Numbered from the stretch's first letter, positions 19,695 to 50,259 are shown. The stretch: 64,000 nt of DNA from Planctomycetota bacterium (GCA_050245995.1 JBFWWV010000001.1:175437-239436); one strand, 5' to 3'. Translations and numbers: made by a program. The notes: generated by a model from the sequence alone, not told the origin.

Positions 19695-19871
19695 GGAATG
19701 GGTCTCTCGGGTCGGAAAAGGGTTGGAGAGGCCCGAGACCTTAAGCACTGGCCGGGAGCAGGTGGGCGCATACAGGCCGCCCTGGTCCTGTTTTTTTGCC
19801 ATTGCGGTGACGAGGAAGAAACGGGTCTCCTAAGCCTCGATGCCAAGGGACCTTGCTCGACCGCTGGGGCG

Positions 19872-19900
19872 CGCGCGGCGCCGTATGCCGGCGCCGCGCG
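19872..19900 (-). terminator. Perfect 12-bp GC hairpin just downstream of paralog B stop
   Basis: cgcgcggcgccg-tatgc-cggcgccgcgcg. No T-run. Confidence 0.35.
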
Positions 19901-19915
19901 GCGGGCAGGCCCGGC

Positions 19916-21709
19916 TCAGTTGCCGAGGACGGCGTCGATCGCGTTCATGATGACGGTCTGGCCGCCACCGACGTTGTCGAAGCGCACCGCCTGCAGGAAC
20001 AGCGGGACGCCCTGGTAGAACGGCAGCGGCGGCACCGCCAGGTTGTAGGTGCCCGGGCCCGAGAAGGTGATCGCCCCGGTCGGGTCGATCAGCACCTCGC
20101 CGCCGAGGAACGGCACCGGGCCGAACGGCGCGACACCGACGACCATCAGGGTCAGCACGGTGTTGACGTTGGGCGAGGTGGTCAGCTGCCAGTTGCCGCC
20201 GACGACCGGCGCCGTGGTGCACTCGAAGCCGAGGGTGTTGATGCCGTTGCCGTTGCGGATCACGCAGCTGGCGGCACCCGGCGTGACGCGGAACACGCCC
20301 TGGTCGGTCGCGGCGCCGGCGCCGTTGCGCAGCGTCGCGGTGAACAGCACGTCGCCGTTCTCGAGCAGCAGCACGTCGTCGTTGCCGAACGTGTTGAGGA
20401 AGCGGTCCTCGTCGTACTGGCCGTTGCCGTCGACGTCGACCGGCGTGCCTTCGCGCACGACGACCTGGCGGTTGCCGAAGCCGTCGTCGAGGACGATCAC
20501 GCCGTCGCGGGTGTCGTCGACGTGGTCGGTGACGCCGGCGATCAAGAACGCGCCGCTCGAGTTGCCGTCCATGGCGAAGAAGCAGTCGCCGAAGCCGGTG
20601 TCGTCCCAGTGCTCACCGGAGCCGGTGACGATCTCGTTCAGGCCGTTGGAGAACGCCACGACGACGCCGTTGCGCACGACCCAGTCCTGCTCGGTGACGT
20701 CGTTGTTGCCGCGGGCGTACCAGTTGCCGCCGGCGTCCAGCCACGACTTGACGATGCCGGTCAGGTCGATCGGCTCGACGAACGGGCCGCCGGGGATCAC
20801 CTGGTTCTCCTGCAGGACCACCACGTTGTTGATGGTGACGACGTTGTCGTCGGTGGTGGCGGCGATGGTGTCACCCTGGATCAGCCAGGTGAGCCCGTCG
20901 CCCGACACGAACATGTCCTCGACGCCGAAGTTCTCCCAGGTGGCGGTCGCGCCGCCGGCCTGCAGCAGCGGGAAGTCGATGCCCTCCTGCAGGAACGCGC
21001 CGTTCGGCAGCATCACCACCTCGTCGGTGGTGGTGGTGAACGGGAGGCCGTCGAGCAGGTCCGAGCGCCAGGTGGCGACGCCGCCGTTGGTCAGGCGGCA
21101 GGTGTCCATGCCGTCATCCCAGGTGCCGCCCGCCAGCGCGGGGATCACCGGGTCGATCAGGCCGCCCTCCTGCGCCAGGGCGGTCCAGGTGCCCAGCGCG
21201 TTGTTGTAGAGCACCACGTAGTCGTCGGCGGTGGTGGCGGCGGTGCCGTTGGTGTTGTTGCCGATCAGCAGGTCGCCGGCGTTGTTCAGGCCGTACTCGT
21301 CGTCGATCGTGCCCCAGATCTCACCGACGGGCGCGAACGGCGCCGGGGCGCCTTCCTGGACCAGCAGCGCGCCGTCGAGCAGCAGCACGTTGTCGTCGGC
21401 GGTCGACGCCGAGTTGGTCTCGCACTCGAGCGCGAAGTGCAGGCCGTCCGGCGACACGATCGGGCGCACGAAGTTGGTGGTGCCGCTGCCCGGGTTGAAC
21501 GGGATGCCGAGGCCGGGGACGAGGTTGGTCGGCGCGCCGGGGAAGTTGACGTAGACGACGTTGATGTTGCCGCCGGGGATCACGCGCAGCTGCGCGCCCG
21601 TCATCTTCGGCGGGTCGCACCCGTCCTGGGCGAGGGCTGAGGGAGCGAGCGCGAAGAGCGCCAGCATGGCGGAGCGCGCAGGGCCGCGCGAAGCATTGCG
21701 AATGGACAT
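19916..21709 (-). CDS. Secreted repeat protein, paralog B
   Basis: ORF 19916..21709. Signal peptide MSIRNASRGPARSAMLALFALAPSALAQ, then QDGCDPPK (A has QDECTPPK). Colinear with paralog A throughout. The C-terminal ~125 aa are nearly identical. Confidence 0.75.
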   Translation of the reverse strand: MSIRNASRGPARSAMLALFALAPSALAQDGCDPPKMTGAQLRVIPGGNINVVYVNFPGAPTNLVPGLGIPFNPGSGTTNFVRPIVSPDGLHFALECETNSASTADDNVLLLDGALLVQEGAPAPFAPVGEIWGTIDDEYGLNNAGDLLIGNNTNGTAATTADDYVVLYNNALGTWTALAQEGGLIDPVIPALAGGTWDDGMDTCRLTNGGVATWRSDLLDGLPFTTTTDEVVMLPNGAFLQEGIDFPLLQAGGATATWENFGVEDMFVSGDGLTWLIQGDTIAATTDDNVVTINNVVVLQENQVIPGGPFVEPIDLTGIVKSWLDAGGNWYARGNNDVTEQDWVVRNGVVVAFSNGLNEIVTGSGEHWDDTGFGDCFFAMDGNSSGAFLIAGVTDHVDDTRDGVIVLDDGFGNRQVVVREGTPVDVDGNGQYDEDRFLNTFGNDDVLLLENGDVLFTATLRNGAGAATDQGVFRVTPGAASCVIRNGNGINTLGFECTTAPVVGGNWQLTTSPNVNTVLTLMVVGVAPFGPVPFLGGEVLIDPTGAITFSGPGTYNLAVPPLPFYQGVPLFLQAVRFDNVGGGQTVIMNAIDAVLGN

Positions 21710-23181: not shown

Positions 23182-25199
<2,018 letters not shown>

Positions 25200-25203
<4 letters not shown>

Positions 25204-32346: not shown

Positions 32347-33513
32347 ATGCACCCACCGCTCTACGGCACGCCCGCTCCCGACGAGGTCCCGCTCGGCGCG
32401 TTGTCCCAGCCGCTCGACCGCGCCTCGACCGCGGCACAGCCGGACGCCGATACGGTGCGCGCGCTGGGCGCGGGCGAGCGGCGCGCGCCGTTCTACCAGC
32501 GGCTCTGTCACCCCAACGGCGTGCGCTTCGAGAGCCTCGTGGCCGCGCGCGAGGGCGCCGACGGCGCCGTCGCGTTCGCGAGCGGGATGGCAGCGATGAG
32601 CGCCGCGCTGCTGGCGCACCTGAGCGCCGGCGACCGCGTGCTGATCGCACGCGAGATCTACGGCGGCACCGACGCGCTGGCGACGCACGACCTGCCGCGC
32701 TTCGGCATCGACGTCGAGCGGTTCCCGGCGCTGGCCGCGGGCGCGCTCGAGCGCGCGCTGCAGCGGCCGGCGCGCGCGGTGGTGTTCGAGACGCCGATCA
32801 ATCCGACCCTGCGGCTGGTCGACCTGCGCGCGGTCGCCGACCTGTGCCGGGCGCGCGGCGCGCTGTCGATCGTCGACGGGACCTTCGCGCCGCCGCCGGT
32901 GCAGCAGCCGCTGGCGCACGGCGTCGATCTGGTCGTGCACTCGGCCACCAAGTTCTACGGCGGCCACTCCGACGTGCTGGCCGGCGTCGTCGCGGGGCGA
33001 CACGAGCTGCTCGGGCCGATCGAAGGCCTGCGGCGGCGCACCGGCGGCGTGCTCGGTCCCGACGCGGCGTGGCTCCTGTGTCGGTCGTACCCGACCATGG
33101 ATCTGCGCCTCGCGGCGCAGCAGGCGGCCGCGCTCGAGCTGGCCGGTCGCCTGGGCCGGCTGCCGGCCGCGGTCGTGCGCGCGGTGCACCACCCGGGCCT
33201 CGACGAGCATCCGGACCACGCGCTCGCGTCGCGGCAGATGCGAGGCGGCGGCACGATGCTGAGCTTCGAGGTCGAGGGCGGCCTGCCGCGTGCGCGCGCG
33301 GTGTTCGACCGGTTCGAGCGCTTCGCGCGGGCGCCGTCGCTCGGCGGCGTCGAGTCGCTGGCGTCGCTGCCGGCCTACACGACCCACGCGTCGTTGACCG
33401 AGGAGGCGCGCCGCGCTGCGGGGATCCCGGAGGGGTTGGTGCGGCTGTCGGTCGGGCTCGAGGGGGTGGAGGTGCTCTGGGGGGATCTGCTGCGGGCGCT
33501 GGGAGTGGTCTAG
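32347..33513 (+). CDS. Cys/Met-metabolism PLP-dependent enzyme (cystathionine gamma-synthase/beta-lyase/methionine gamma-lyase family)
   Basis: FASGMAAMSAALL, VFETPINPTL, VHSATKFYGGHSD (PLP lysine), SLGGVESL, RLSVGLE. Confidence 0.9.
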   Translation: MHPPLYGTPAPDEVPLGALSQPLDRASTAAQPDADTVRALGAGERRAPFYQRLCHPNGVRFESLVAAREGADGAVAFASGMAAMSAALLAHLSAGDRVLIAREIYGGTDALATHDLPRFGIDVERFPALAAGALERALQRPARAVVFETPINPTLRLVDLRAVADLCRARGALSIVDGTFAPPPVQQPLAHGVDLVVHSATKFYGGHSDVLAGVVAGRHELLGPIEGLRRRTGGVLGPDAAWLLCRSYPTMDLRLAAQQAAALELAGRLGRLPAAVVRAVHHPGLDEHPDHALASRQMRGGGTMLSFEVEGGLPRARAVFDRFERFARAPSLGGVESLASLPAYTTHASLTEEARRAAGIPEGLVRLSVGLEGVEVLWGDLLRALGVV

Positions 33514-33537
33514 TTGGGTTCTCGCGCCGGGTGTGCC

Positions 33538-33738
33538 CCGGCCCTAGCCCTTGGCCCAAGCCCAAGCCCTAGCCTTTGCCTTTGCCCGAGCCTTTGCCTT
33601 TGCCCTGGCTGTGCGGTCGGCATCACTTCGCGGATGCTCTCTGCTTGGGGCGTGAGGGACGCATTCGCGACTCCAGCCAGCCGGCAATGCTCGGAGACCT
33701 GCGAGGGCCAGGGCCAGGGCTAGGGCAAAGGCAAGGCC
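33538..33738. repeat. Degenerate hexamer microsatellite (~12 units) with an inverted partner tract ~95 nt downstream
   Basis: 33538-33610: gccctagcccttggcccaagcccaagccctagcctttgcctttgcccgagcctttgcctttgccctgg. 33704-33738: agggccagggccagggctagggcaaaggcaaggcc, which is its reverse complement in kind. Intergenic. Confidence 0.8.
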
Positions 33739-33781
33739 AACGGCGGAGCAGCCGCGCCTCAGCGCGGCCGCTCCGCCGTTG
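33738..33781 (+). promoter_or_regulatory. Near-perfect 19-bp stem hairpin about 30 nt upstream of hutU start
   Basis: caacggcggagc/gctccgccgttg (12 bp) plus inner gccgcgc/gcgcggc (7 bp), loop ctca. No T-run after it. Confidence 0.5.
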
Positions 33782-33813
33782 CCCGGATCGCCGCGACTTG
33801 CTTGGCTGTACAC

Positions 33814-35457
<1,644 letters not shown>

Positions 35458-35461
35458 GGCC

Positions 35462-35482
35462 ACGGCGGCGCGCGGCCGCCGT
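35462..35482 (+). terminator. Short GC hairpin 5 nt after hutU stop
   Basis: acggcggc-gcgcg-gccgccgt. No T-run. Confidence 0.35.
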
Positions 35483-35551
35483 TCCCGAAGTGCGGCCGAG
35501 GGAAAAGTCTTGGTGGCCACAAGTCCGACAAGATGATGCACCACCGCATCG

Positions 35552-36313
35552 ATGTTCCGCTCCCGTAAGGACAAACAGGCTGCCTCCGCGCGCGAGCTGC
35601 GCGACGACATGGTCGTGATCGTCGATCGCGCCGTGAACCCGTACCTGGTGCTGTTCCACGAGCCGGCGTCGTACCGCGCCGAACAGGTGCGGGCGCTGCG
35701 CAACCGTCTGGTGGCGCTCAATCCCGACGGCGAGCCCAAGACCCTGGTGGTGACCTCGGCGGGCCGCAGCGAGGGCAAGACCGTCACCGCCCTCAACCTG
35801 GCGATGGCGCTCGCCGAGCTCGAGCGCCAGCAGGTGCTGATCGTCGACGCCGACCTGCGGCGCCCGTCGGTCGAGCACTACCTGAACATCAACCCGGCGG
35901 CTGGCCTCAGCGACCTGCTGCTCGGCAACACGTCGCTGGACAAGGCCCTGCGGCCGGTCGGCTTCCGCCGGCTGATGCTGCTCGGCGCCGGCACGCGCGT
36001 CGGCAACCCGGCCGAGGTGCTCGGGACGTCGCGGCTCGACGAGCTGTTCGCGCGGCTCAAGGAGCGCTTCCAGTACATCGTCATCGACACGCCGCCGGTG
36101 CTGCCGTCGACCGACGCCGGGGTGCTCGCGGCGCGGGCCGACGGGACGCTGTTCGTCCTGCGGCTCGAGCACACTCTCAAGGGGCGCGCGCGCGACGCGA
36201 TCCGCACGCTGCAGGACCTCGGCGCCAACGTGCTCGGCACGTTCGTCAGCGAGCTGCGCGGCGCCGATCCGGACACCGACCCCGAACTGCGCTACGGCAG
36301 CCTGGAGGAATGA
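35552..36313 (+). CDS. BY-kinase-type (CpsD/CapB/Wzc C-terminal domain) P-loop ATPase, lacking a C-terminal tyrosine cluster
   Basis: HEPASYRAEQVRALRNRL, Walker A VTSAGRSEGKT, Walker A' VLIVDADLRRP, Walker B YIVIDTPPV. The C-terminal tail ELRGADPDTDPELRYGSLEE has a single Tyr. No TM segment, and no Wzz-like partner nearby. Confidence 0.75.
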   Translation: MFRSRKDKQAASARELRDDMVVIVDRAVNPYLVLFHEPASYRAEQVRALRNRLVALNPDGEPKTLVVTSAGRSEGKTVTALNLAMALAELERQQVLIVDADLRRPSVEHYLNINPAAGLSDLLLGNTSLDKALRPVGFRRLMLLGAGTRVGNPAEVLGTSRLDELFARLKERFQYIVIDTPPVLPSTDAGVLAARADGTLFVLRLEHTLKGRARDAIRTLQDLGANVLGTFVSELRGADPDTDPELRYGSLEE

Positions 36314-37104
36314 CCGTCGTGGCGGGGTTCAGGGAGGCGCTGAAGCAGGCGGTGCGGCAGATCGCGTTCCGCACCGACCTCGACTCCCTGAAGCGTCAGG
36401 GCGTCGAGCAGGTCAGCGTGCTCGGCATCGACCGTATCGTCGCGTTGGTCGAGGAGGCGGTGCACCGGAGCCTCAAGAGCCGGCTGGTCGGCATCGAGCG
36501 CGAGGCCGTCGCCGACGCCACCAAGTCCGAGTTCCTGCGCCTGCTGCGCACCAACCAGGACCTGCAGCGCGAGAAGTCGGAGCTCGAGCGCCTGAAGGAG
36601 CGCGCCGAGGACGAGGTCGACCAGCTGCGCCGCGAGCTCGGCGCCGAGAAGCAGGCGCTGGAGCAGCGGCTGCAGTGGAACAGCCTGGCCGACACCTCGC
36701 GCTACGAGGGCGAGAACGCCGCGATCGCCGTCAAGGTGCGCGACATGATCGGCCACATGTTCGACGACGGCGCCGACGCCACCGTGCTGCGCGACCGCGT
36801 GCTGGCGCTGGTGATCGACACCGTCGACAAGGAGCGCCGCTCGGCCGACCAGGCGCGCCGCGCGCTGCGCGACCGCGAGGTCGAGAACCTGCAGCGGCGC
36901 ATCGAGAAGCTGACGCAGTCGCTCGACACCACCGAGCACCGCCTGCGGCAGGTCGCGGCGATGAAGAACATCGACGACGGGATCTCGTCGATCTACCGCG
37001 AGGTCCAGGGCCTCAGCGCCGAGGCCGCCGACTTCGGCAAGAAGAAGGAACTGATGTCCGCCATCTTCCAGGCCAACATGCGCCTGCAGAAGCGGGCGAA
37101 GTGA
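36310..37104 (+). CDS. Cytoplasmic coiled-coil protein, unknown function
   Basis: ATGA overlap with the upstream ATPase gene. Long heptad-like charged stretches (LRTNQDLQREKSELERLKERAEDEVDQLRRELGAEKQALEQRLQ; RALRDREVENLQRRIEKLTQSLDTTEHRLRQ). No TM or signal peptide. Confidence 0.6.
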   Translation: MTVVAGFREALKQAVRQIAFRTDLDSLKRQGVEQVSVLGIDRIVALVEEAVHRSLKSRLVGIEREAVADATKSEFLRLLRTNQDLQREKSELERLKERAEDEVDQLRRELGAEKQALEQRLQWNSLADTSRYEGENAAIAVKVRDMIGHMFDDGADATVLRDRVLALVIDTVDKERRSADQARRALRDREVENLQRRIEKLTQSLDTTEHRLRQVAAMKNIDDGISSIYREVQGLSAEAADFGKKKELMSAIFQANMRLQKRAK

Positions 37105-37132
37105 GCTACCGACAGACCCAGGAAGGATTGAG

Positions 37133-38230
37133 ATGACCGACGAGACGACCATGACTCCGCCGCAGCCGACCACGGAACCCGCCGCGCCCAAGAAGGAACA
37201 CGGCGTGCTCTACATCGGCATGGACCTCGGCACCTCCCGCACGTCGGTGTCCGCCAGCAACGGCGTGCGCGAGTCCGTGTACTCGGTGGTGGGCTACCCG
37301 AAGGACGTCGTCAGCCGCAAGCTGCTGAAGAAGGACGTCCTGTTCGGCAAGGAGGCCATCGAGAAGCGCCTGTCGCTGAAGATGTTCAAGCCGCTCGAGA
37401 AGGGCGTGCTGAAGTACACCGGCGACGGCTCGATGACCGACGAGGCCAAGCAGAACCTCAAGGCCGCCAAGGACCTGATCGGCGAGGCCATCCGTCTGGC
37501 GCGGCCGCGCAAGGACGAGCTGGTCTACTGCGTCATCGGCGCGCCGGCCGAGGCCTCGATCAAGAACAAGGAGGCCATCATCGAGGCCGCGCGCGAGCAC
37601 GTCGACTCGGTGATGCTGTGCAGCGAGCCGTTCTCGGTCGCCTACGGCCTCGACTGGCTCGAGGACGTGCTGGTCATCGACATCGGCGCCGGCACCACGG
37701 ACCTCTGCCGAATGCACGGCACGATGCCGGAGGAGACCGACCAGGAGATGTTCGACATCGCCGGCGACGCCGTCGACGCCGAGCTGGCGCGCCTGATCCG
37801 CGAGACCTGCCCCGGGGCGCAGTTCTCCGAGCTGATGATCAAGGAGATCAAGGAGCGCCACTCGTTCGTCGGCGACACCGCCGAGCGCGTGAAGGTCGAG
37901 CTGCCCGTCGACGGCAAGCCGACGCAGTTCGACATCACCGACCAGATCCAGAAGGCCTGCTCGATCCTGATCGACCCGATCGTGCAGGGCATCCGCACGC
38001 TGATCGGCACCTTCGACCCCGAGTTCCAGGCCAGGCTGAAGAACCGCGTGCTGCTCGCCGGCGGCGGCTCGCTGGTCAAGGGGCTCGACGGCGCGGTCGA
38101 GAAGGCCATGCGCGAGCAGCTCGGCGGCGGCCGCGTGATCCGCATCGAGGAGCCGATCTACGGCGGCGCCAACGGCGCGCTGAAGATCGCCCACGACATG
38201 CCCGAGGAGTTCTGGGAGAAGCTCAAGTAG
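37133..38230 (+). CDS. MamK-family bacterial actin (MreB/ParM superfamily ATPase)
   Basis: RBS AGGAAGGA before the ATG. Phosphate-1 IGMDLGTSRT, SVVGYPKDV, CSEPFSVAYGLD, phosphate-2 VIDIGAGTTDLC, HSFVG, adenosine LLAGGGS, C-terminal GGANGALKIAHDMPEEFWEKL. These blocks line up with MamK as I remember it (SVVGYPKDV, VSEPFMVGYGLD, IVDIGAGTTDIC, FSFVG, FAGGGS, ...PPQYWRQL). Confidence 0.85.
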   Translation: MTDETTMTPPQPTTEPAAPKKEHGVLYIGMDLGTSRTSVSASNGVRESVYSVVGYPKDVVSRKLLKKDVLFGKEAIEKRLSLKMFKPLEKGVLKYTGDGSMTDEAKQNLKAAKDLIGEAIRLARPRKDELVYCVIGAPAEASIKNKEAIIEAAREHVDSVMLCSEPFSVAYGLDWLEDVLVIDIGAGTTDLCRMHGTMPEETDQEMFDIAGDAVDAELARLIRETCPGAQFSELMIKEIKERHSFVGDTAERVKVELPVDGKPTQFDITDQIQKACSILIDPIVQGIRTLIGTFDPEFQARLKNRVLLAGGGSLVKGLDGAVEKAMREQLGGGRVIRIEEPIYGGANGALKIAHDMPEEFWEKLK

Positions 38231-38236
38231 GAGCAT

Positions 38237-38640
38237 GCTGCGGTGCAAGTGAGGGCGCCGAAGGCGCCCTCACGCACCGCGCGCACGGACGCGGTCCGCG
38301 CGCCAGAGCCGATCGGACGTCAGGGCGCGGGGACACAACACCCGGATCGGGCGCATCCGCGGGACTCGGAACGCAGCTGCTTCGGGGCCGCAGCGGCCGG
38401 TCCGGCTGGCACGAGGCGCGCCGCGTCAGCACATCCGCAATAGCTGGAGCAGCGGACGCGTCACGCCGCGTGCGGGCCGGCCCTTGGCCGCTGCTGCGGC
38501 CCCGACGCTCGGGCGGGGTCGCGCTCTTGCTGCCCGCGAGAGCGGGGGCAGCAAAGCTGAATACCAGGAAGTCGGGACGCGAGAGCTGACGCTTACAGCC
38601 CAGCTAGCGGCTCCGGCTCGGCGCGTAGCCTCGCGCGCCG
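38237..38640 (+). repeat. Left arm of a ~400-bp imperfect inverted repeat
   Basis: Hand alignment to the reverse complement of 39125-39514. Long shared blocks include gacgcggtccgcgcgc, gcagcggc-ggtccggctggcac, and gcgtgcgggccggccc-tggccgctgct...ctgcccgcgaga-gggggcagcaaagctgaa...cgcgagagctgacg. Begins 7 nt after the stop at 38230. Confidence 0.8.
38249..38273 (+). terminator. Perfect 11-bp hairpin 19 nt after the actin-gene stop (inside the left inverted repeat)
   Basis: gtgagggcgcc-gaa-ggcgccctcac. No T-run. Confidence 0.45.
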
Positions 38641-38718
38641 CGGCATCTGCGCGGAACCTCGGTGGGAGCCTGCGAGCGGGCAATCGCATCGTCGCCGGCG
38701 CAGGGAGCGGTCTCGTTG

Positions 38719-39132
38719 ATGGTGAGGATCGCAGTGGAGGAGGCGTTGCGGGTGCTGGCGCGCGCCGAGGTCGACGCGTTGGCGGAGCTGTGCGGGTCCC
38801 GCGACGCAGCGGCGCGGCACCTGACGATGTTCGTGCTGGGGCACGCGCGGGATGCCGGCGCGGTCCCGGCGCTGCTGCGCGTGCTCGTGCACCAGCAGGA
38901 CGACTTCGATCACGACTGGTTCGATCACGATTGGGCGTTCGAGGCGATCGCGCAGCTCGGACCGGTCGCGCTCGAACCGCTGGCGCGCGTGGCGCTCGAG
39001 GGCGGCGACACCGAGGCTGAGCACGCCACGCAGGCCCTCGGCCAGTGCCACGGCCCTGGGGTCTGGCCGCAGCTCGAACGCATCCACCGTCAACGTCGAC
39101 CGCTGCCCCGCGGCTTCTACGCCGCCTGCTAG
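38719..39132 (+). CDS. Small HEAT/PBS-lyase-type repeat protein
   Basis: In frame within ORF 38662..39132; ATG 38719 preferred (MVRIAVEEALRVL). AARHLTMFVLGHARDAGAVPALLRVL and AFEAIAQLGPVALEPLARVALEGG are HEAT-like. Contains a duplicated FDHDW. Confidence 0.45.
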   Translation: MVRIAVEEALRVLARAEVDALAELCGSRDAAARHLTMFVLGHARDAGAVPALLRVLVHQQDDFDHDWFDHDWAFEAIAQLGPVALEPLARVALEGGDTEAEHATQALGQCHGPGVWPQLERIHRQRRPLPRGFYAAC

Positions 39133-39514
39133 CGCGCAGCGCCCGAGCCGAAGCCGCGAGCTCAGCGGCTCCGTCAGCTCTCGCGAGACGGTTTCTCCGG
39201 TTGTTCAGCTTTGCTGCCCCCGTCTCGCGGGCAGTAAGGCGCGACCGCGCGCGGGGTCGGGACCGGAGCAGCGGCCAGGGGCCGGCCCGCACGCGCCGCG
39301 ACGCGGCTTCGGTGTCGGCTCGCGGCGGTGTTGTCGCGGCGCGGCGGGTGCCAGCCGGACCTGCCGCTGCGCTAGCCGGAGCGGCTGCTCTCCATCGGAG
39401 CAGTGCCCTCGGCTGGGCGGTGGCGTTCCTGCCGCGGATGTTGCCCCTTCTGCGCGCGGACCGCGTCCGCGCGTCGCTGTGCGCGAGGGTGCTCTGCACC
39501 CGAGCTTGCACAGC
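39125..39514 (-). repeat. Right arm of the inverted repeat
   Basis: Reverse complement aligns with 38237-38640. Ends 3 nt from the HAD-gene stop at 39517. Confidence 0.8.
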
Positions 39515-39516
39515 AA

Positions 39517-40239
39517 TCACCGGATCGCGAAGTGCCCCTGCAGGATCGTCTGCAGCTCGAAGAAGTCGCGCACTTCCCAGTTCGGCTGGGTCTTGCCGGT
39601 CTCGGTCGAGTGGCGGCCGCTGCGGCGGATGCGGACGGTGAACCAGCCCTCCTGGTTGCACGGGTCGATGTCGTGCGTGGGATTGTCGCCGACGTACAGG
39701 CAGCGGCTGGGCTCGAGCTGCATGCGCTGCAGCACGCGGCGGTAGAGCTTCGGGTTGGGCTTGCTGAAGCCGATCTGGTCGGTGAAGAACACCGCCGAGG
39801 GCGTCATGAACTCGACCAGCTTGAGGCGCACCAGCTTCTCGGCCTGCTTGATGGTGATGCCGGCGGACACGATGCCGCGGATCAGCCGGGTGCTGGCCAG
39901 CCACTTGAGCACCTCGTAGACGTCGTCGTGGACCTGCAGCTCGCGCCACTTGGTCTCGTGGTAGGCGACGACGCCGGCAGCGACGATGACGGCGCGGTTG
40001 ACGCCCTGGCTGGCCTCGGGCGGCAGGCGATCGACGACCTTGTCGAAGTGGTTGCCGTAGTTGCTGCTGAACTCGGTCAGCACCTCGTCGAGCTCGCGCA
40101 GCGCGTCGTTGCGATCGGCGCGCAGGCCGGCGCGGATCATCGCGTCGATGGCGGCGCGGCGCGCCTTGTCGGCGAACACGGTGGTGGAGAACAGCGTGTC
40201 GTCGATGTCGAAGAAGATCGCGTCGAGGGGCGTGCTCAC
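39517..40239 (-). CDS. HAD-superfamily hydrolase, subfamily IA
   Basis: Motif I FFDIDDTLF, motif II VSAG, motif III KPNPK, motif IV YVGDNPTHDI. Confidence 0.85.
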   Translation of the reverse strand: MSTPLDAIFFDIDDTLFSTTVFADKARRAAIDAMIRAGLRADRNDALRELDEVLTEFSSNYGNHFDKVVDRLPPEASQGVNRAVIVAAGVVAYHETKWRELQVHDDVYEVLKWLASTRLIRGIVSAGITIKQAEKLVRLKLVEFMTPSAVFFTDQIGFSKPNPKLYRRVLQRMQLEPSRCLYVGDNPTHDIDPCNQEGWFTVRIRRSGRHSTETGKTQPNWEVRDFFELQTILQGHFAIR

Positions 40240-40588
40240 TGACCTCCGCTGGCGGGCCGGAGTCTAGGAGCCTGCGCCGCGGGAATGCAAGCTGCCGGTC
40301 GCGACCTCCATCGCCCCGGCTCGCGCCGCGAACGCCCCGAGGAATCCACCGATTCGCCTGCGCTTCCGCGGCGCGACCCGGAACGAACCCCACGCACCCG
40401 GGCGGCTCGCCTCCCGTGACGCAGCCTCCTGGCCGGACGGGGGGCCTCGACAAGGGCGCATCGGCCGTCGGCGGCGACCGATCGCGTCCGCGGAGGGGCC
40501 GGGGGCGCCGCGGCGCGCAAGGGCCGCGGCAGGGAGCGGGCGCGCAGGCCGGTGGGGATCGCCGGCCGCGCTCGGCCCTGCGTCCCGG

Positions 40589-43207
40589 CTACTTTCCGAC
40601 CATGGCGCGGTTCTCGAGATCGCGGATGTCCGTGATCCAGGCGCGCACCATGACCATCAGGCTGCGGTTCTCGTCGGCCATGCCTTCCTGCTTGAAGAAG
40701 AACGACAGCAGCGGCAGGCGGGCCAGCAGCGGCACCTCGGCGCGGCGCTCCTTGGTGAGCACCTGGCGAAGGCCGCCGAGCAGCACGGTGCCGCCGTCCG
40801 GCACGCGGGCCGTGGTGGCGAAGCTGGTGACCGTGAGGTTCGGCAGCTGCAGGGTGACCGGCAGCGTCGAGCCGGCGAGCGACGTCGTGAACGTCGGGAT
40901 CGGGCGGGTCAGCTCGGCGATGGTGGGGTTGAGGTTCAGGACGATGTACTTCCGGCTCTGCTCGATCACCGGCTGGACGTCGAGGACGATGCCGTCCTGG
41001 ATCACGTCGACCTTCGGGTCGGCGATGAACGACGCCTGCGCGACCTCGACGTCGAAGTCGCGGACGTAGGCGGTCTGGTTGATCACCGCGACGTGGCCGC
41101 GCTCGCGGTCCAGCACCGACAGGATCTGGCTGTTGACCACCTCGGCCTCCTCCTGCTTCTCGATGGCCTGCAGGACCATGTTGAGCTGGATGTCGTCGAG
41201 CCAGGTCCAGCTCGCGGTCAGGCCGCCGTCGGTCGACAGCGCGCGGCCGAGGTCGGACGCGAAGAAGTTCTCGCTGCGGCCGCGAACGTCGCCGTCGCCG
41301 CCGTCGTTGAAGAACGCGCCGGCCAGCGGGTTGGCGGCCGCGTCGCCGGTGCCGCCGTTGTCGAGGCCGCGCGACGCGTTGTTCTGCAGGCCGTTGGTGA
41401 CGTCGTCGAGGGTCGCGGTCGCGCCCTTGTTGCCGGCGCCGCCGAGGCCGCGGAAGTCGACGCCGACCTCCTGCAGGAAGTTGCGCGTGATCGTCAGGAA
41501 CTTGCTGTCGATCGTGACCACCGGCGTCGCGAAGCGGCGCATGTCCGAGAGCACGCCCTCGATGCGGCGCTGCATGTTCGGGCTGGCCTTGACGATCAGG
41601 TAGCCCGTGTCCTCGGGGCTGATGCTGACGCCCTCGTTCTCCCAGTAGGTCGGGTCGGTGGCGTCCTGCACGTTGGTGACGAGGTCGGCGATCTCGATGT
41701 AGGAGACCTTGTCGTCGCCCTCGCCGCCGGCGCGCGGCGTCTCGTCGAAGCTGTCGCCGCCGGGGATGTCGCGGATGCGCGGCGGCAGGAACTGCGTGCG
41801 CTGGAAGACCAGGTCCATCACGTTGTAGACCCGGCTGACGATGGTGCCCGACGCCTCGGACTTGTTGCCCATCACCACGACGCCGTTGCGCACGGTCCAG
41901 GCCAGGTTGGTGGCCTTCTGCACCATCAGGTCGAGGAAGTTGTCGAGCGTGATCGAGCTCACCAGCTCGACCGTCATCGTCAGGCTCTCCTCACCGATCA
42001 CGTCGCGGCCCTGCGGCGTGATGATGATCGGCACGTTGGTGACGGTCTGCAGGTTCTGCACGACCTCGAGGTAGTCGACCTCGCTGTAGTTCAGCTGGCC
42101 GACCGGCACGGTGCGGACCAGGTCCCAGACGGCGGCGTCCTGCGGGTCGATCGACTCGCGCGTGTCGACCGTGCCGACGCGGCGCTGGGCGCGCTCCCAG
42201 GTGGCCTCGTCGAGCTGCAGCACCTTGGTGTAGGGGACCTTCAGCTCCTCGCGCGCCTCGAGCAGGGAGCGGATCTCCTTGGCCTTCTGGTTGTAGTAGT
42301 CGTCGGCCGCCTGGTCGCGGGCCGCCTTGGTGGCGGCGTGCACCATGTCCTGGGCGATGGGGCTGCTCGGGTCGACGTCGAGGGCCTTCAGCGCGACGTC
42401 GCGCGAGTGCGCGAAGCGGCGGTTCTCGAACGCCATCTGCGCCTCGCGCAGCAGCAGGTCCATCTTGGCGCGGCGGCGGGCCTCGCTCGCCTGGCGCTCG
42501 GCGGCCAGCTTCTGCGCCAGCTCGTCGGCGAACTGCGTCGACACCTGGCGCTCCTGGGCGGCGAGCTGCTGCTCGGCGTCGCTGAGCAGGCCGTCGACCT
42601 GCGCGGGCAGGTTCATCCAGTCGATGCGGTCGCGGGTCTCGATGATGCGCTGCGCGTGCTGCAGCTCCTCGACCGCGCCGGCGAAGTCCTGGCTGCCCAT
42701 CCGCTGACGCGCGCGGTCCATCTTCTCGGTGACCAGGGCGCGACCGCGCTCGGCGGCGATCTGCTCCTGTTCGACCCACAGCTGGTGGATGTCCACCACG
42801 CCGCCGACCGGCACGCCCATCTCGGCCTGCACCGCGGCGATCATGTTGCGCACGCGCTCGTTCTCGGGCTGCAGGTCCTTGGCCTTCAGCAGTTCGCTGA
42901 GCGCGGCCTCGAGCTTGCCGTCCAGCCGCAGGCGCTCGCCCAACTCGAGGTAGCGGGTGACGAGCGCGGCGGTGCGCTGCTGGTCGAGCGTGCGCGGGCC
43001 CTGGCCCTGACCCTGCGGATCCTGCGCCGCGGTGGACGAGCCGGAGTCGTCCGTCATCGGCGCCAGGTCGCCCGGCATGTCCTCGGTCCCGGAGGTCCGA
43101 TCGGCCATGGCGGGGTCCGTGGCGTTGTCGCTCGACGTGGAGCAGGAGGTGCCGACGAGCGCGGCGACGAGGGAAGCAGCGAGCAGGCGCGGATGTTCGA
43201 AGGCCAT
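40589..43207 (-). CDS. Secretin-family outer-membrane channel (GspD/PilQ superfamily) with long helical N-terminal module
   Basis: ORF 40589..43387; start moved to ATG 43207 (MAFEHPRLLAASLVAALVGTSCS; signal, possible lipobox). About 350 aa TPR/coiled-coil-like. N0/STN-like block YLEVVQNLQTVTNVPIIITPQGRDVIGEESLTMTVELVSSITLDNFLDLMVQKATNLAWTVRNGVVVM. Secretin core ...TARVPDGGTVLLGGL...EVPLLARLPLLSFFFK. Confidence 0.88.
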   Translation of the reverse strand: MAFEHPRLLAASLVAALVGTSCSTSSDNATDPAMADRTSGTEDMPGDLAPMTDDSGSSTAAQDPQGQGQGPRTLDQQRTAALVTRYLELGERLRLDGKLEAALSELLKAKDLQPENERVRNMIAAVQAEMGVPVGGVVDIHQLWVEQEQIAAERGRALVTEKMDRARQRMGSQDFAGAVEELQHAQRIIETRDRIDWMNLPAQVDGLLSDAEQQLAAQERQVSTQFADELAQKLAAERQASEARRRAKMDLLLREAQMAFENRRFAHSRDVALKALDVDPSSPIAQDMVHAATKAARDQAADDYYNQKAKEIRSLLEAREELKVPYTKVLQLDEATWERAQRRVGTVDTRESIDPQDAAVWDLVRTVPVGQLNYSEVDYLEVVQNLQTVTNVPIIITPQGRDVIGEESLTMTVELVSSITLDNFLDLMVQKATNLAWTVRNGVVVMGNKSEASGTIVSRVYNVMDLVFQRTQFLPPRIRDIPGGDSFDETPRAGGEGDDKVSYIEIADLVTNVQDATDPTYWENEGVSISPEDTGYLIVKASPNMQRRIEGVLSDMRRFATPVVTIDSKFLTITRNFLQEVGVDFRGLGGAGNKGATATLDDVTNGLQNNASRGLDNGGTGDAAANPLAGAFFNDGGDGDVRGRSENFFASDLGRALSTDGGLTASWTWLDDIQLNMVLQAIEKQEEAEVVNSQILSVLDRERGHVAVINQTAYVRDFDVEVAQASFIADPKVDVIQDGIVLDVQPVIEQSRKYIVLNLNPTIAELTRPIPTFTTSLAGSTLPVTLQLPNLTVTSFATTARVPDGGTVLLGGLRQVLTKERRAEVPLLARLPLLSFFFKQEGMADENRSLMVMVRAWITDIRDLENRAMVGK

Positions 43208-43769
43208 CGATTTCACGCTCAAGGCTTGTGGGGTGCGAGCACCCACAAGGGGAGGGGACGATACTCCGATCCGTCGGTCCCGCCCTGGGCCGTGGGCGAG
43301 AGGGGCTGCATCGCTTGACGTTGCGGAACCGAGCGAGAGGGGAGCTGGGGGTATTCGTCGTCGCAGGCTCCCGAACGGGCGGCCCACGGCGCCGAAGTGG
43401 GCCAGAACCTAGCCGTGCCGGGGGGGCTGCGCCAGCGGTTTCTGCCGGTCAAACTGCGGTTGCCGGCATCGGTTGTCGCCCGCGCGCGCGGTCGCCAGCC
43501 GGGGGCGAGTCGTCGAGGTCCACCGGTGGAGCGGCCGGCGGGACGTCCATCGCATCGCGCCGCCGGTGCGGTGTGGGGCCCACGGCGGGATCCCGGCGGG
43601 GGAGTGGGCGAAGCGCCCGGAACGGTGCGTCGCCGGACCTGCTGCGGGAGCGCGCCGGGACGATCGGGCGATCGCGACAGCCGGCGGAGGCGCGGCTGCG
43701 CAGCCTGGCTCGGGCCGGTGTCGGCTCGGGCGGCGCCGCGGCGGGGGTGCCGCGGCGCGGAGGGGGCGG

Positions 43770-44336
43770 TTACTTGCCGACCGGCTGCGCGCCGAGGCCG
43801 CCGCCGAAGTTGATCTCGTCGAAGCCGGCCTTCTTGACCACGTCGGTGGTCCGCGCCACGTCGTTGTAGAACGTGCCGGGGTGCGGCTCGACGACCACGG
43901 GCATCGCCTTCTTCTGGCCGGGGTTGTCCTTGTCGTCCTGCCAGGTGTCGCGGTTGTTGTAGATCCGCTGCAACTGGCTCAGGAGGTCGTCCTCGTTGGT
44001 GACGAGCGTCGGACCGACCATCCACTTGATGGTGTGGTTCTGCAGCGCGAACCGGAACGGGCGACTGGTGTGCTCGTTGATCTGGTTGATGCCGCCGCCC
44101 TGCGGGAAGATCGGCTGACCAGGCTGATCGACGTAGACGCCGACCGACAGCTGCTCCTGCGGCTCGACCTGGGTGCTCTGGCTGCCCTTGTCCTTCGGCA
44201 GGTACGCCGGGAGCTTGGCCTCGAGCACTTTGAAGTCGATGCAGATGAAGAAGATGATCATCAGGAAGACGCAGTCGATCATCGGCGTCATGTCCGGCTT
44301 GGATTCTTCCTGGGCCTGTTCGAGTGCATTGCTCAT
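43770..44336 (-). CDS. exbD: ExbD/TolR-family biopolymer transport protein
   Basis: DMTPMIDCVFLMIIFFICI (signature TM). Periplasmic domain ends VVVEPHPGTFYNDVARTTDVVKKAGFDEINFGG. Confidence 0.9.
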   Translation of the reverse strand: MSNALEQAQEESKPDMTPMIDCVFLMIIFFICIDFKVLEAKLPAYLPKDKGSQSTQVEPQEQLSVGVYVDQPGQPIFPQGGGINQINEHTSRPFRFALQNHTIKWMVGPTLVTNEDDLLSQLQRIYNNRDTWQDDKDNPGQKKAMPVVVEPHPGTFYNDVARTTDVVKKAGFDEINFGGGLGAQPVGK

Positions 44337-44345
44337 GATCGACTC

Positions 44346-44876
44346 CTACTTTGCCAGGCCTTTGCCCTTCAGCATCTTGAGCTCCTTGTCCTCCTCGGAC
44401 ATCGCGAGCTCGACCATCCAGAACGCAGCCTCGGGTTGGCTGCACTGCTTCATCACCTCGCCGACGTAGTGCCACTCGGTCCACTTGTCGGCGCGCAACA
44501 GGATCGGCTCGTCGACCAGCACCACGTCGCGTCCGCCGATGTTCTCGGTCGAGGTCTTGAGGTCGGTGGTCTGCTTGATGAGCTTCAGCATCGTCATGAT
44601 GCCGGAGTAGTCCTTGCCGTGGACGGCCGGATCGTACTGCACCTTGCCCTTGTAGTAGACCGCGCCGGTCTGCAGCAGGTTGATCACCGGACGGTTCTCG
44701 GAGGGCTGCTCGTCGGGCTCCTGGTACTTGGCCTCGGGGAGGATCAGGTCCTCGAGGTTCTGCTGGCTCAGGTCGATGATCAGCACGAAGAAGATCATCA
44801 GCAGGAAGACGCAGTCGATCATGGGCGTCATGTCCATCTCGACTGTCTCCTGCGCGATTTTGTTGAGGTTGGCCAT
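44346..44876 (-). CDS. exbD: ExbD/TolR-family biopolymer transport protein (second copy)
   Basis: DMTPMIDCVFLLMIFFVLII. 9-nt gap to the next exbD. Confidence 0.9.
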   Translation of the reverse strand: MANLNKIAQETVEMDMTPMIDCVFLLMIFFVLIIDLSQQNLEDLILPEAKYQEPDEQPSENRPVINLLQTGAVYYKGKVQYDPAVHGKDYSGIMTMLKLIKQTTDLKTSTENIGGRDVVLVDEPILLRADKWTEWHYVGEVMKQCSQPEAAFWMVELAMSEEDKELKMLKGKGLAK

Positions 44877-44961
44877 GGGTTGCTCCTAGGGGGTCACAAC
44901 GGGAGGGCTGGGGTCTCGGCTCACTCCCGTTGCGGATCCCGGGGCGGGGCTCAATCGCAGG

Positions 44962-45675
44962 TCACTTGTCCTTGCGGAAGCGCTCGAAGAGGTCTTCGGC
45001 GATCGCGTTCACCTCGGTCGACATGCGCACCACGCGGTTGCGCAGGATGAAGAAGCAGACGCCCACGGGGATGGCGACCGTCAGACCCAGAATGGTCGTG
45101 ATCAGCGCCATCTTGATGCCCTTGGCGAGGATCGCCGGGCTGACCGAGCCGCCCGCGTCGGCGATGGTGCCGAACGTGACGAACATGCCCGACACCGTGC
45201 CGAACAGTCCCATCATCGGCGCGATGGCCGACATCAGCGACAGCCAGCCGATCTTCTGGAACAGCTTCACGGCCTCCTCGGTCTCCATTTCACGCACCGT
45301 GATCTGGATGGTCTCGAAGGGGTGGCCGAGCTTGCTGAGGCCGGCGCCGACGCAGCGGGTCAGGTAGTTCTTCTCCTGCTCGCACAGCTCGGCGGCCTCC
45401 TGGAAGTTCTCTTCGTCGAACAGCGCCTCGAGCTCGTCGATCATGTCCGGCGGCGCGAGCTTCTCGCGCTTGATGCTCATGAAGTTCTCGATGATGAGCG
45501 CGAGCGCCAGCACCGACATGAGCACGATCAGGTAGCCGATCGGGCCGGCGTTCTCGTAGGCGAAGATGTCGCCGATGACGCTGCGCGACTCGCCCTCCTG
45601 GGCGGTGGCGAAGGACGGCAGCAGCAGCGGCGTGGCCAGAGCGGCGAGACGGACGACAGGCGCGGGCAGATTCAT
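44962..45675 (-). CDS. exbB: MotA/TolQ/ExbB-family proton channel
   Basis: Real part of ORF 44962..46449; ATG at 45675 (MNLPAPVVRLAALATPLLLPSFATAQ, signal-like). IGYLIVLMSVLALALIIE, SAIAPMMGLFGTVSGM, KGIKMALITTILGLTVAIPV. Confidence 0.9.
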   Translation of the reverse strand: MNLPAPVVRLAALATPLLLPSFATAQEGESRSVIGDIFAYENAGPIGYLIVLMSVLALALIIENFMSIKREKLAPPDMIDELEALFDEENFQEAAELCEQEKNYLTRCVGAGLSKLGHPFETIQITVREMETEEAVKLFQKIGWLSLMSAIAPMMGLFGTVSGMFVTFGTIADAGGSVSPAILAKGIKMALITTILGLTVAIPVGVCFFILRNRVVRMSTEVNAIAEDLFERFRKDK

Positions 45676-45893
45676 GGAGCAGCGACTCCGTGGGAAGGGA
45701 CCAGCTTGCAGGGGGGAAGGGAGAGGGAGCGACCGCGAGGGCAGCGCGCGATCGGCGGTACGTGGGGGTGCAGAGTGTGCGCAGAACCCGCTCGGCGCGA
45801 AAGTCCCCACCGCGAAAGAACCTGCTGCCGACTGCGGCGCGGCCGGCCGGGCGCGGGTGGCGGTGGGGGCCGCGGGTGCGGGTGCTGTGCGGT

Positions 45894-47036
45894 TCACTTG
45901 GCGAGTTCCGCCCGGGCGGCGGCGGCCCAACGCGAGGTCGGGTAGCTGCGCGTCACGATCTGGAAGTAGGCCTTGGCGTCGCCGCCGGAGCCCTCGCCGA
46001 GGGCCCGCATGACGCGGCCCAGGTAGTAGTTGGCCTTGGCGCTGGTGTCGCCGGCGCCGGTGTCCAGCACGCAGGCCTCGGCCAGCGCGATCTGCGCCTC
46101 GCGCAGCTTCGCGGGGTTCTTGCTGTCGGCGGCGGCCAGGAACGTGGCCTCGCCCTGGCCGGCCTTGCCGGAGGCCGCCAGCGACGGATCCGGGTTCTGC
46201 GACAGCGAGCGGAAGTAGTCGGCGGCGCGCTGGAACTCCTTCTCGCGCACCAGGGTCTCGCCCTCGCCGACCTTCGAGTTGATCTTGATCGCCTCGAACT
46301 CGGGCCCCTTGCCGCCGGCCTGCGCCAGCGCGGTGTCGGCGGCCGATGCGGCGCTCTGGAACGCGCCGCGAGCCTCCAGGGTCTTGCCCTGGTCGAGCAG
46401 GCACAGCGCCAGCTCGTACTTGGCGCGGGCGCTCCACACGGCGCCCCAACCGTCGCGCACGGAGCGGTCGTCGAGCTCCTTGAGCGTGGTCTCGGCGTCG
46501 GCCTGGACCTGGCCCAGCCGCAGCGCGCGACCGAGCAGGTACATCGCCTCGGGCAGGTGCCAGTGCTCCGGGAATTCACTGATCCAGGCGCGCAGCGCGC
46601 CGGCCGCGTTGGCTGCCGCCGCGGGATCCGCGGCGCCGGCGCCTACCGCCGCCTTGCCCTGCAGGAAACGCGCCTCGGCCTTGAGCAGCTCGCGCTCGGT
46701 GCCGTTGGCGGCCTCGCCGTACAGCTGCTGCGCGGTCGCGAACTCGCCGCGCTCGAGCGCGGCCTCGGCGCCGACGAACGCGTCCGGGGCGCCGCCCCAA
46801 CGGATGCCGGCCACGAGGTGCGGCGGAATGTCGACCTCCTCGGTGCCGCGCAGCACCTTGACCGCACTCAGCGTGAACGTCTGCACCTTGACGCCGCGCA
46901 TGCTCGACCCGTCGGTCTTGAGCACGGTGTCGAGGGCTTCCTGCGCCGGGGCCAGCGCCGCGGCGAGCGCCAGGGCGAGGGCGGCGGACCCGGCGCGGAG
47001 GCGCGGGCGGGGCGTGGGGGACTGGTGCGTGGACAT
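45894..47036 (-). CDS. Periplasmic TPR-repeat protein (380 aa)
   Basis: Real C-terminal part of the 1407-aa track ORF 45894..50117; ATG at 47036 (MSTHQSPTPRPRLRAGSAALALALAAALAPAQE). TPR-like pairs (GEFATAQQLYGEAA, EAMYLLGRALRLG, AKYELALCLLDQGK, KANYYLGRVMRALG). Start shares 1 nt with the upstream stop (TGATG). Confidence 0.7.
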   Translation of the reverse strand: MSTHQSPTPRPRLRAGSAALALALAAALAPAQEALDTVLKTDGSSMRGVKVQTFTLSAVKVLRGTEEVDIPPHLVAGIRWGGAPDAFVGAEAALERGEFATAQQLYGEAANGTERELLKAEARFLQGKAAVGAGAADPAAAANAAGALRAWISEFPEHWHLPEAMYLLGRALRLGQVQADAETTLKELDDRSVRDGWGAVWSARAKYELALCLLDQGKTLEARGAFQSAASAADTALAQAGGKGPEFEAIKINSKVGEGETLVREKEFQRAADYFRSLSQNPDPSLAASGKAGQGEATFLAAADSKNPAKLREAQIALAEACVLDTGAGDTSAKANYYLGRVMRALGEGSGGDAKAYFQIVTRSYPTSRWAAAARAELAK

Positions 47037-49933: not shown

Positions 49934-50202
49934 GGGGCGGACTCCGGAATGCACGTGGGAAGCTGTAGTTACTGCCGGTCCAGGGTGCGGCCGCACCCGG
50001 ATCGGACAAAGACCAGCGCGGAGGGGGCCTCGATCCGCGCCGTCGGAGGAACGGGGAGCATAGCGAGCGGTTCAGTGGATCCAACCGCGACCGACGCGGG
50101 GATCCACGGGGACCCACCGCGATGGATGGTGTGCCGGCGGGGGAAGCCGGCGCGCGGCGCAGGTCCGCGTGGGGAAGGGCCGCGTCGGAAAGGGCCGCGC
50201 GG

Positions 50203-50228
50203 CGCCGACGCCAGCGCGGGCGTCGGCG
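50203..50228 (-). terminator. Perfect 10-bp GC hairpin ~30 nt downstream of the second secretin stop
   Basis: cgccgacgcc-agcgcg-ggcgtcggcg. No T-run. Confidence 0.35.
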
Positions 50229-50259
50229 GGGCGGCGCCGCGGGCGCCGCCGGGCCGCGT

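Follow-up and report, generated by a model that had tools for sequence, protein, structure and literature searches.

The present analysis concerns a three-gene operon in a stretch of 64,000 nucleotides (nt) from a Planctomycetota bacterium (GCA_050245995.1, JBFWWV010000001.1:175437-239436; the whole stretch is called the window below), which encodes a P-loop ATPase of the bacterial tyrosine kinase (BY-kinase) type, a helical partner protein and an actin of the MamK family. Three open reading frames (ORFs) on one strand, marked at 35552-36313, 36310-37104 and 37133-38230 by an earlier reading made from the sequence alone (the sequence-only reading), were found at exactly these positions. They encode 253 amino acids (aa), 264 aa when counted from the ATG at 36310, and 365 aa, respectively, and, because their GC content at third codon positions (GC3) is 0.95-0.99 in DNA of about 72% GC, with a low second-position GC, they are taken as real genes. 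A transmembrane segment, whose absence had been noted for the ATPase, is lacking in the partner and the actin as well. The ATPase and partner genes meet in ggaggaATGAcc, where the ATPase stop overlaps an in-frame ATG, and this ATGA overlap had been regarded as the means of coupling. The junction sequence and the tight linkage stand, the overlap as the coupling device probably does not, since a GTG at 36319 is preferred as the start by RBS (ribosome-binding site) spacing, by the orthologs' N-termini and by independent gene calls. This GTG lies 9 nt from GGAGGA and 5 nt past the ATPase stop, and is the start chosen both by the gene calls and in the NCBI protein (261 aa); the orthologs' N-termini MAGF[KR]E agree with it, whereas the ATG at 36310 stands directly against the RBS with zero spacing. 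Thus, the two genes are probably tightly coupled at a distance of about 5 nt, the overlap itself not necessarily being the coupling, and in the relatives the corresponding spacers measure 2-16 nt. The 28-nt gap before the actin gene is as described earlier, with the RBS AGGAAGGA placed 5 nt ahead of the actin ATG.

The third gene was assigned by the sequence-only reading to the MamK family, and the profile and structure searches place it there and not with MreB, PilM or ParM. The NCBIfam model for MamK, NF040964, gives 403.1 bits, barely over its cutoff of 400, and the actin remains below the cutoffs of the models for five other families (score/cutoff in bits: BeeR 209/530, MreB 67/293, ParM 19/417, PilM 16/133, FtsA 20/176). 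The best match in the PDB is Magnetospirillum MamK (5jyg/5ljv; 245 bits, E 8e-72, 39.1% identity over 330 aa), followed by BeeR 8r2n with 140 bits and MreB with 54 bits. The actin motifs noted earlier, among them SVVGYPKDV, SEPF, DIGAGTTD and the C-terminal ..W..L, all align to MamK 5jyg, and DLGTS, GGGS, the phosphate loops and the catalytic glutamate E143 of SEPF are conserved in the same alignment. With the MamK model, the members of the clade to which the window actin belongs score 403-421, other non-fused relatives 351-375 and the Magnetospirillum-type representative 508; judged by these scores, the clade is situated at the edge of the curated MamK family. In a rough neighbour-joining (NJ) tree without bootstraps the actin belongs to a distinct clade, separate from the branch that holds the Magnetospirillum-type MamK.

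As a new find, however, the actin did not hold up: its family was described in 2019, and the exact protein is already present in NCBI as 'MAG: MamK family actin-like protein [Planctomycetota bacterium]' (MAG, metagenome-assembled genome), encoded on a contig of 527 kb, by which the supposed planctomycete host is borne out. The MamK-closest actin of Saltatorellus ferox and its relatives was named 'saltatorellin' (Wiegand et al. 2019, bioRxiv 10.1101/817700), and its mCherry fusion formed filaments in E. coli and in the delta-mamK mutant of M. gryphiswaldense. The cultured bacteria of the Saltatorellus group are reported to lack FtsZ, to have MreB, to change their shape and to show an amoeba-like locomotion, and the GC reported for them, 67-70.5%, fits the approximately 72% of the window (10.1101/817700). 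More than 100 clusters (90% identity level) are 74-90% identical to the window actin, and the labelled ones are nearly all Planctomycetota MAGs. The cloning primers of S. ferox encode the termini MTDITTD... and ...YWEQLK, those of the window actin being MTDETTM... and ...FWEKLK; the C-terminus YWEQLK occurs in 23 of 120 family members, and the exact S. ferox protein is absent among the best 120 actin matches. The primer-encoded termini, the clade and the published description together make the window actin very likely an ortholog of S. ferox Poly30 saltatorellin. The text of the preprint deals with the actin only, and nothing was found in it on the neighbouring genes of saltatorellin (operon, coiled-coil, tyrosine or ParA partners); in the literature searched, one later paper uses the name, merely citing the preprint. 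No mam genes were detected in the window, in agreement with the earlier statement: Pfam scans of 33 of its proteins (the trio and 30 further ORFs) yielded none that is Mam-like, including cation-efflux, magnetochrome-protease and LemA proteins.

The representative search also brought up fused members of the actin family outside the window. A protein of 768 aa, P0336, comprises a complete FtsZ (Tubulin + FtsZ_C) with a MamK-family actin at its C-terminus and groups with the Magnetospirillum-type MamK in the rough NJ tree. Among the nearest family relatives beyond the clade of the window actin (42-49% identity), many have the MamK-family domain at the C-terminus of a protein of 500-1232 aa (P0292, P0293, P0295, P0298, P0300 and others); proteins of the P0292 type carry long acidic repeat-rich N-terminal extensions, with a conserved basic segment ..FSVKRI[KR]SRFSLRK.. 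just before the actin domain, and the extension bears a resemblance to a fused acidic adaptor of the MamJ kind.

The partner encoded directly upstream of the actin matches no Pfam or NCBIfam family at cutoff, and its 329 homologs are essentially all unannotated and restricted to the same clade; it appears to be a previously undescribed adaptor family. An AlphaFold2 model built with 45 homologs is all-helical (helices 37-150 and 155-233, and a separate helix 242-263; pLDDT 72.8, pTM 0.27), for which Foldseek returned nothing from the PDB (best E 2.9, generic helices), and no recognisable DNA-binding domain was detected by Pfam, NCBIfam or Foldseek. Conservation among the 45 homologs is bimodal, being strong at residues of about 5-95 and 180-262 with a variable middle, which gives an N-terminal module (N-module) and a C-terminal tail domain with the consensus ..LQRRI.KL...L..TE..L.....G[IV][SA]S[IL]YR.VQGL......KK.LM..IF.AN..LQK. 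A homolog search with the tail-only profile gave mostly short fragments and no further architectures.

The organisation of the locus was compared over 28 genome loci retrieved from the actin, together with the loci of three look-ups (designated by L numbers). The order ATPase-partner-actin occurs in 14 distinct genomes at an actin identity of 66-85%, so that the conservation supposed for the trio is real, and its flanks vary, hutU standing upstream in many loci and MMPL or other genes in others. The trio as a module, however, holds in part only: the ATPase is not a universal member, and what remains constant is the partner tail and the actin. A hidden Markov model (HMM) of the tail (E 1e-24 to 1e-36) places it beside the actin at all loci whose sequence allows a judgement and whose actin identity is at least 65%, in genomes of 50-72% GC and under three types of head: ATPase-linked, GGDEF-fused and short. 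Where the ATPase is missing, the tail is borne by GGDEF-headed proteins or by short basic proteins of 164-182 aa, the head thus being swapped over a constant tail. The GGDEF heads (partners in L018, L019, L023 and L032) match PF00990 with 31-57 bits against a cutoff of 23.8 and retain the RxxD I-site, followed at 5-residue spacing by IDSQF, VEDRL, VDDRL or LAGSF, with GG[DE]EF lost; they are probable degenerate receptor-type domains for cyclic di-GMP (c-di-GMP), predicted to bind the ligand. The N-module HMM, in turn, matches wherever the ATPase is present and at no one of the nine tail-bearing loci that lack it, and in the two apparent exceptions, L006 and L011, the contigs end at that point. 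The adjacency holds in the reverse direction as well: starting from full-length GGDEF-type tail proteins in metagenomes, the actin was found directly after the GGDEF-tail gene in 4/4 loci having downstream sequence.

In a more distant clade, with actins of 47-49% identity, a different protein of 250-265 aa is encoded directly upstream of the actin in all five loci, and shares with the partner only the terminal helix (..LLEIFETNLKLQRG vs ..LMSAIFQANMRLQKRAK), so that its relation to the partner is suggestive only. The gene in this position in L026, L027, L029, L031 and L033 begins with MRYRFRGLLRETGKAVEGHVEAPTVDQAYDLMADNGIV and has no Pfam match; this start resembles the N-terminal motif of GspF/PilC-type platform proteins. 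In L018 (9403-13367) and L021 (3931-8037), the actin lies between two tail genes; the upstream one encodes a short basic protein, the downstream one is of the GGDEF type, and a DUF3810 membrane protein is encoded between the actin and the latter.

The product of the first gene was described by the sequence-only reading as a BY-kinase-type ATPase, and its motifs and structural matches agree with that. It scores 120.5 bits with the generic BY-kinase domain model TIGR01007 (cutoff 108.05), the only NCBIfam model to reach its cutoff, the specific exopolysaccharide (EPS) equivalogs lying far under theirs. In the PDB it comes closest to the CapA/CapB chimera, BceF, VpsO, Etk and Wzc, all of them BY-kinases (E 1e-29 to 1e-19), whereas MinD, ParA, McdA and FleN follow at about 1e-8, some 20 orders of magnitude worse, and the MinD models give 37-40 bits against cutoffs of more than 200. 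When the window protein is aligned with 14 orthologs from the compared loci, Walker A SAGRSEGKT, Walker A' LIVDADLRRP (hhhDxDxR) and Walker B YIVIDTPP are conserved, and the EX2RX2R motif AEQVRALRNRL is kept in all 14 orthologs covering the region. The C-terminal cluster of BY-kinases typically holds 3-7 tyrosines, a number that this ATPase does not reach, its acidic tail retaining 1-2 tyrosines in 15/15 aligned sequences (one, Y248, in the window protein). The earlier description of the protein as lacking a tyrosine cluster is therefore right as to a multi-tyrosine cluster but passes over the conserved equivalent of Y248. No Wzz/CapA-type activator is encoded nearby, as had been said, none appearing in the Pfam scans of the 30 other window ORFs, and the flanks of the syntenic loci, like the window, show neither a Wzz-type activator nor genes for polysaccharide export. 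By its sequence, the ATPase is accordingly of the BY-kinase type, its tyrosine tail being minimal, and is not classed as a ParA/MinD-type switch, because the deviant signature lysine is absent and the matches to MinD and ParA are far weaker.

Right before the ATPase start lies an element of about 45 nt, containing two AAGTC half-sites about 19 nt apart, which is kept in the window and in L007, L012, L028 and L010, and partly in L024. Since the remaining spacer between hutU and the ATPase is unconserved, the element fits a dedicated promoter or operator, and it is a candidate for the operon's own. A scan for sigma-70 promoters gave no consensus match, the terminator scan gave background level only, and the search of 33000-41000 against Rfam returned no families.

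Table 1. Coordinates of the operon, its parts and the adjacent envelope genes in the window.
Feature	Position	Strand	Basis
Candidate promoter/operator, conserved element GGGAAAAGTCTTGGTG..AAGTCCGACAAGATGATGCAC	35498..35542	+	Conservation among relatives
BY-kinase-type P-loop ATPase, 253 aa, cytosolic (predicted)	35552..36313	+	TIGR01007, PDB matches, 15-sequence alignment
Helical partner, putative adaptor, 261 aa (ORF to ATG 36310)	36319..37104	+	No known family
Partner N-terminal module, residues ~5-95, ATPase-linked	36322..36594	+	45-homolog conservation, HMM
Partner C-terminal tail domain, ~75 aa	36871..37104	+	HMM, adjacency to actin
MamK-family actin, saltatorellin clade, 365 aa	37133..38230	+	NCBIfam, PDB alignment, NJ tree
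Envelope block: HAD hydrolase, 932-aa secretin (MshL/PilQ-like), two ExbD, 986-aa TPR protein, 881-aa secretin+TPR protein	39517-52905	-	

Taken as a whole, the operon is best explained as a signal-regulated module of actin, adaptor and regulator that would form cytoplasmic filaments, an explanation to which we give about an even chance. The window actin would polymerise into filaments, as its S. ferox counterpart did in heterologous hosts, and the partner would serve as its dedicated adaptor or regulator, the tail acting on the filament by binding, nucleating, anchoring or bundling; this actin-directed role is suggested by the strict gene adjacency under changing heads. The N-module would couple the partner to the ATPase by docking or regulation, as their strict co-occurrence and the near-abutting genes indicate. 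The ATPase itself may, most likely as BY-kinases do, alternate between an oligomeric and a dissociated form, driven by the binding of ATP and by tyrosine (auto)phosphorylation, a cycle proposed because Walker A, A' and B, the EX2RX2R ring motif and the tail tyrosine are all kept. Such cycling would switch the clustering or the activity of the adaptor and thereby filament assembly, and in the sister lineages c-di-GMP would probably supply an equivalent input through the GGDEF head. The leading candidate for the output, by analogy with what the preprint proposes for saltatorellin, is a change of cell shape or motility. A more far-reaching version, in which saltatorellin would be a signal-controlled cytoskeleton whose tail relays interchangeable inputs (the ATPase or c-di-GMP) and which drives shape-shifting, pseudopod-like protrusion or FtsZ-independent division, is put forward as a speculative proposal that is rather unlikely to hold in full. 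Such a case would be the first in which a BY-kinase passed from polysaccharide export to the control of a cytoskeleton.

Several observations weigh against the regulated actin module. The ATPase has a single tail tyrosine and no identifiable activator, its kinase activity being only predicted, and in the ortholog of L010 (7858-8613) the Walker A lysine is replaced by arginine, EGRT for EGKT, a change that may come from an error of sequencing or mark a variant with altered catalysis. The terminal helix of the tail is moderately amphipathic and basic (hydrophobic moment 0.44, charge +3), so that the tail could bind the membrane instead of actin. The otherwise invariant Tyr229 of the partner is Phe in L017, a locus with the ATPase, which argues against this residue as an obligatory ATPase substrate. 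The partner in the distant clade shows weak homology (hhalign over 23 columns, probability 42%, E 2.6e-4), no natural fusion of the tail, the N-module or the ATPase with the actin exists among 270 family proteins, and the co-occurrence is confounded by shared ancestry, all cases belonging to one Planctomycetota clade.

Among the other explanations, a positioning system after the manner of PomXYZ, as favoured by the sequence-only reading, would have ATPase dimers on a surface, stimulated by the coiled-coil partner, place an organelle or the division site, while the actin would be the cargo or the track. BY-kinases do share the P-loop superfamily with ParA and MinD, the ATPase has weak Pfam matches to MipZ, ParA and CbiA, its pairing with a coiled-coil protein is reminiscent of PomXY, and the host clade is reportedly without FtsZ (10.1101/817700). 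The analogy fails, however, at the level of sequence, as Walker A has no signature lysine, MinD, ParA, McdA and FleN match at about 1e-8 where BY-kinases reach 1e-29, and the BY-specific DxDxR, EX2RX2R and tail tyrosine are all conserved; moreover, the actin-partner pair dispenses with the ATPase in sister lineages, and little credence is left to such a system. Another view, that of an ordinary EPS or capsule BY-kinase standing by chance beside an unrelated actin, could appeal to the best NCBIfam matches, which are polysaccharide-associated autokinases (TIGR03018 149, EpsG 128 and eps_fam 120.5 bits), but of these models only the generic domain one reaches its cutoff, and the window has neither a Wzz/CapA activator nor Wza, Wzx/Wzy or a polysaccharide export cluster. 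With the ATPase joined to partner and actin in 14 genomes at the short spacers given above, and its presence predicting the partner N-module exactly, this view is largely refuted by synteny and hardly credible.

The module could also be the cytoplasmic track or anchor of the adjacent machine of secretin, TPR and ExbB/ExbD-type motor proteins, like the Agl-Glt gliding complexes of Myxococcus, for which MreB and the coiled-coil protein AglZ are required. HAD-secretin-ExbD-ExbD genes in convergent orientation follow the actin gene in the window, as they do in L001, L004, L007, L012, L014, L017, L024 and L030, and the amoeba-like surface movement, part of the unusual locomotion of Saltatorellota (10.1101/817700), might be explained. 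The envelope block is, however, on the opposite strand to the actin, separated from it in the window by a 1.2-kb insertion, and stands beside neither the trio in L013, L015 and L022 nor any locus of the GGDEF type; as the unrelated upstream hutU is conserved to about the same extent, the linkage most likely reflects general collinearity, and the track or anchor is an improbable role. Still less probable is a segregation system of the type II ParMRC kind, with the actin pushing DNA and the partner as a ParR-like centromere-binding adaptor, for which the adjacency of the genes for an actin and a small adaptor speaks, as well as the likeness of the proposed tail role to the contact of ParR with ParM, the C-terminal peptides of ParR binding the ends of ParM filaments. 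The ParM model gives 19 bits against a cutoff of 417, the adaptor gene lies upstream of the actin and not downstream, neither direct nor tandem repeat arrays of a centromere-like kind flank the operon, the locus is present in single copy on the chromosome with synteny across the clade, and the partner has no recognisable DNA-binding domain, so that segregation is very improbable here.

Beyond the operon, the Pfam scans identified in the window histidine kinases, a response regulator, a sigma-54 activator, an M28 peptidase, a JAB protein and a GT9 glycosyltransferase, enzymes of amino-acid metabolism (urocanase, a Cys/Met PLP (pyridoxal phosphate) enzyme and an aminotransferase) and, as envelope genes, two secretins, TPR proteins and two ExbD genes. 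The HAD-secretin-ExbD part of the envelope block is syntenic with the trio in many relatives, not in all. Its HAD hydrolase was considered as a cognate phosphatase of the ATPase; it is generic, TIGR02253-like below the cutoff and absent from several trio loci, and the assignment is unsupported. Between the actin stop and this convergent HAD gene lies a segment of about 1.2 kb (38264-39473), which has long inverted repeats, imperfect in sequence, at its two ends (arms ~38264-38569 and ~39196-39473, with collinear pieces 84-95% complementary), enclosing an ORF of 156 aa (38662-39132) with a HEAT-like sequence and no family match. Because the relatives have only about 13-270 nt in this place, it looks like a genome-specific insertion, possibly a non-autonomous mobile element. 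On the plus strand at 23182-25203, some 10 kb ahead of the trio, a sigma-54 enhancer-binding protein of the unusual architecture FHA + GAF + AAA+ + HTH_8 is encoded, and on the minus strand (17898-21709) there are two large adjacent genes, for 634 and 597 aa with GC3 0.95-0.97, which have no Pfam match at E <= 1e-3.

While the actin was already known, the partner family, the modularity of tail and heads and the recruitment of a BY-kinase-type ATPase appear to be undescribed in the literature searched, in which nothing of relevance turned up on a link between a BY-kinase and an actin-like protein. The functional data on saltatorellin so far consist of heterologous filaments only, in a clade without genetics; the locus offers concrete, testable partners, namely an adaptor family with an actin-linked tail, an ATPase outside a polysaccharide role and a variant with a GGDEF head, and turns the shape change of FtsZ-less bacteria into specific questions of binding, phosphorylation and c-di-GMP. 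If the regulated module is true, it would widen the known roles of BY-kinases and would set a modular adaptor logic beside those of ParR/ParM and MamJ/MamK.

Among the known systems, the nearest is saltatorellin itself, almost certainly of one protein family with the window actin, which shares with it the closeness to MamK, the high-GC FtsZ-less hosts related to Planctomycetota and the lack of magnetosome context, while the preprint covers the actin alone and the partner genes come from this analysis. MamK works with MamJ and McaA/McaB in Magnetospirillum, and with the coiled-coil proteins Mad20/23/25/26 and Mad28 in Desulfovibrio magneticus (PMC12748827). The window actin is of the same family, with its filament likewise proposed to be organised by a dedicated helical or acidic partner, but it is without nearby magnetosome genes, belongs to a clade separate from Magnetospirillum MamK, and its partner has no detectable similarity to the described families. 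MamK is not known to be regulated by a BY-kinase or a GGDEF head. BeeR, the three-stranded tubular actin of Verrucomicrobiota (PMC11929497), is comparable as a non-magnetotactic offshoot of the MamK lineage in the Planctomycetes-Verrucomicrobia-Chlamydiae (PVC) superphylum and by a disordered N-terminal extension, but the window actin is not BeeR by the scores given above (NCBIfam 209 bits against 530; 8r2n 140 against 245 for MamK). ParMRC similarly encodes an actin together with a small dedicated adaptor, and the proposed C-terminal contact parallels that of ParR and ParM; the window actin is, however, not ParM, centromere repeats are absent, the gene order is reversed, and the locus belongs to the chromosomal core genome and has an extra regulatory ATPase. 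The ATPase, finally, resembles the CapB/PtkA-type BY-kinases of CapA/CapB (S. aureus) and TkmA/PtkA (B. subtilis) in that its cytosolic kinase domain stands alone and bears Walker A, A' DxDxR, B DTPP, EX2RX2R and an acidic tail with tyrosine. PtkA of B. subtilis can also be activated and localised by MinD. The window ATPase differs from them by its 1-2 tail tyrosines and by having neither a transmembrane activator nor polysaccharide genes, being instead genetically coupled to a putative cytoskeletal adaptor and an actin.

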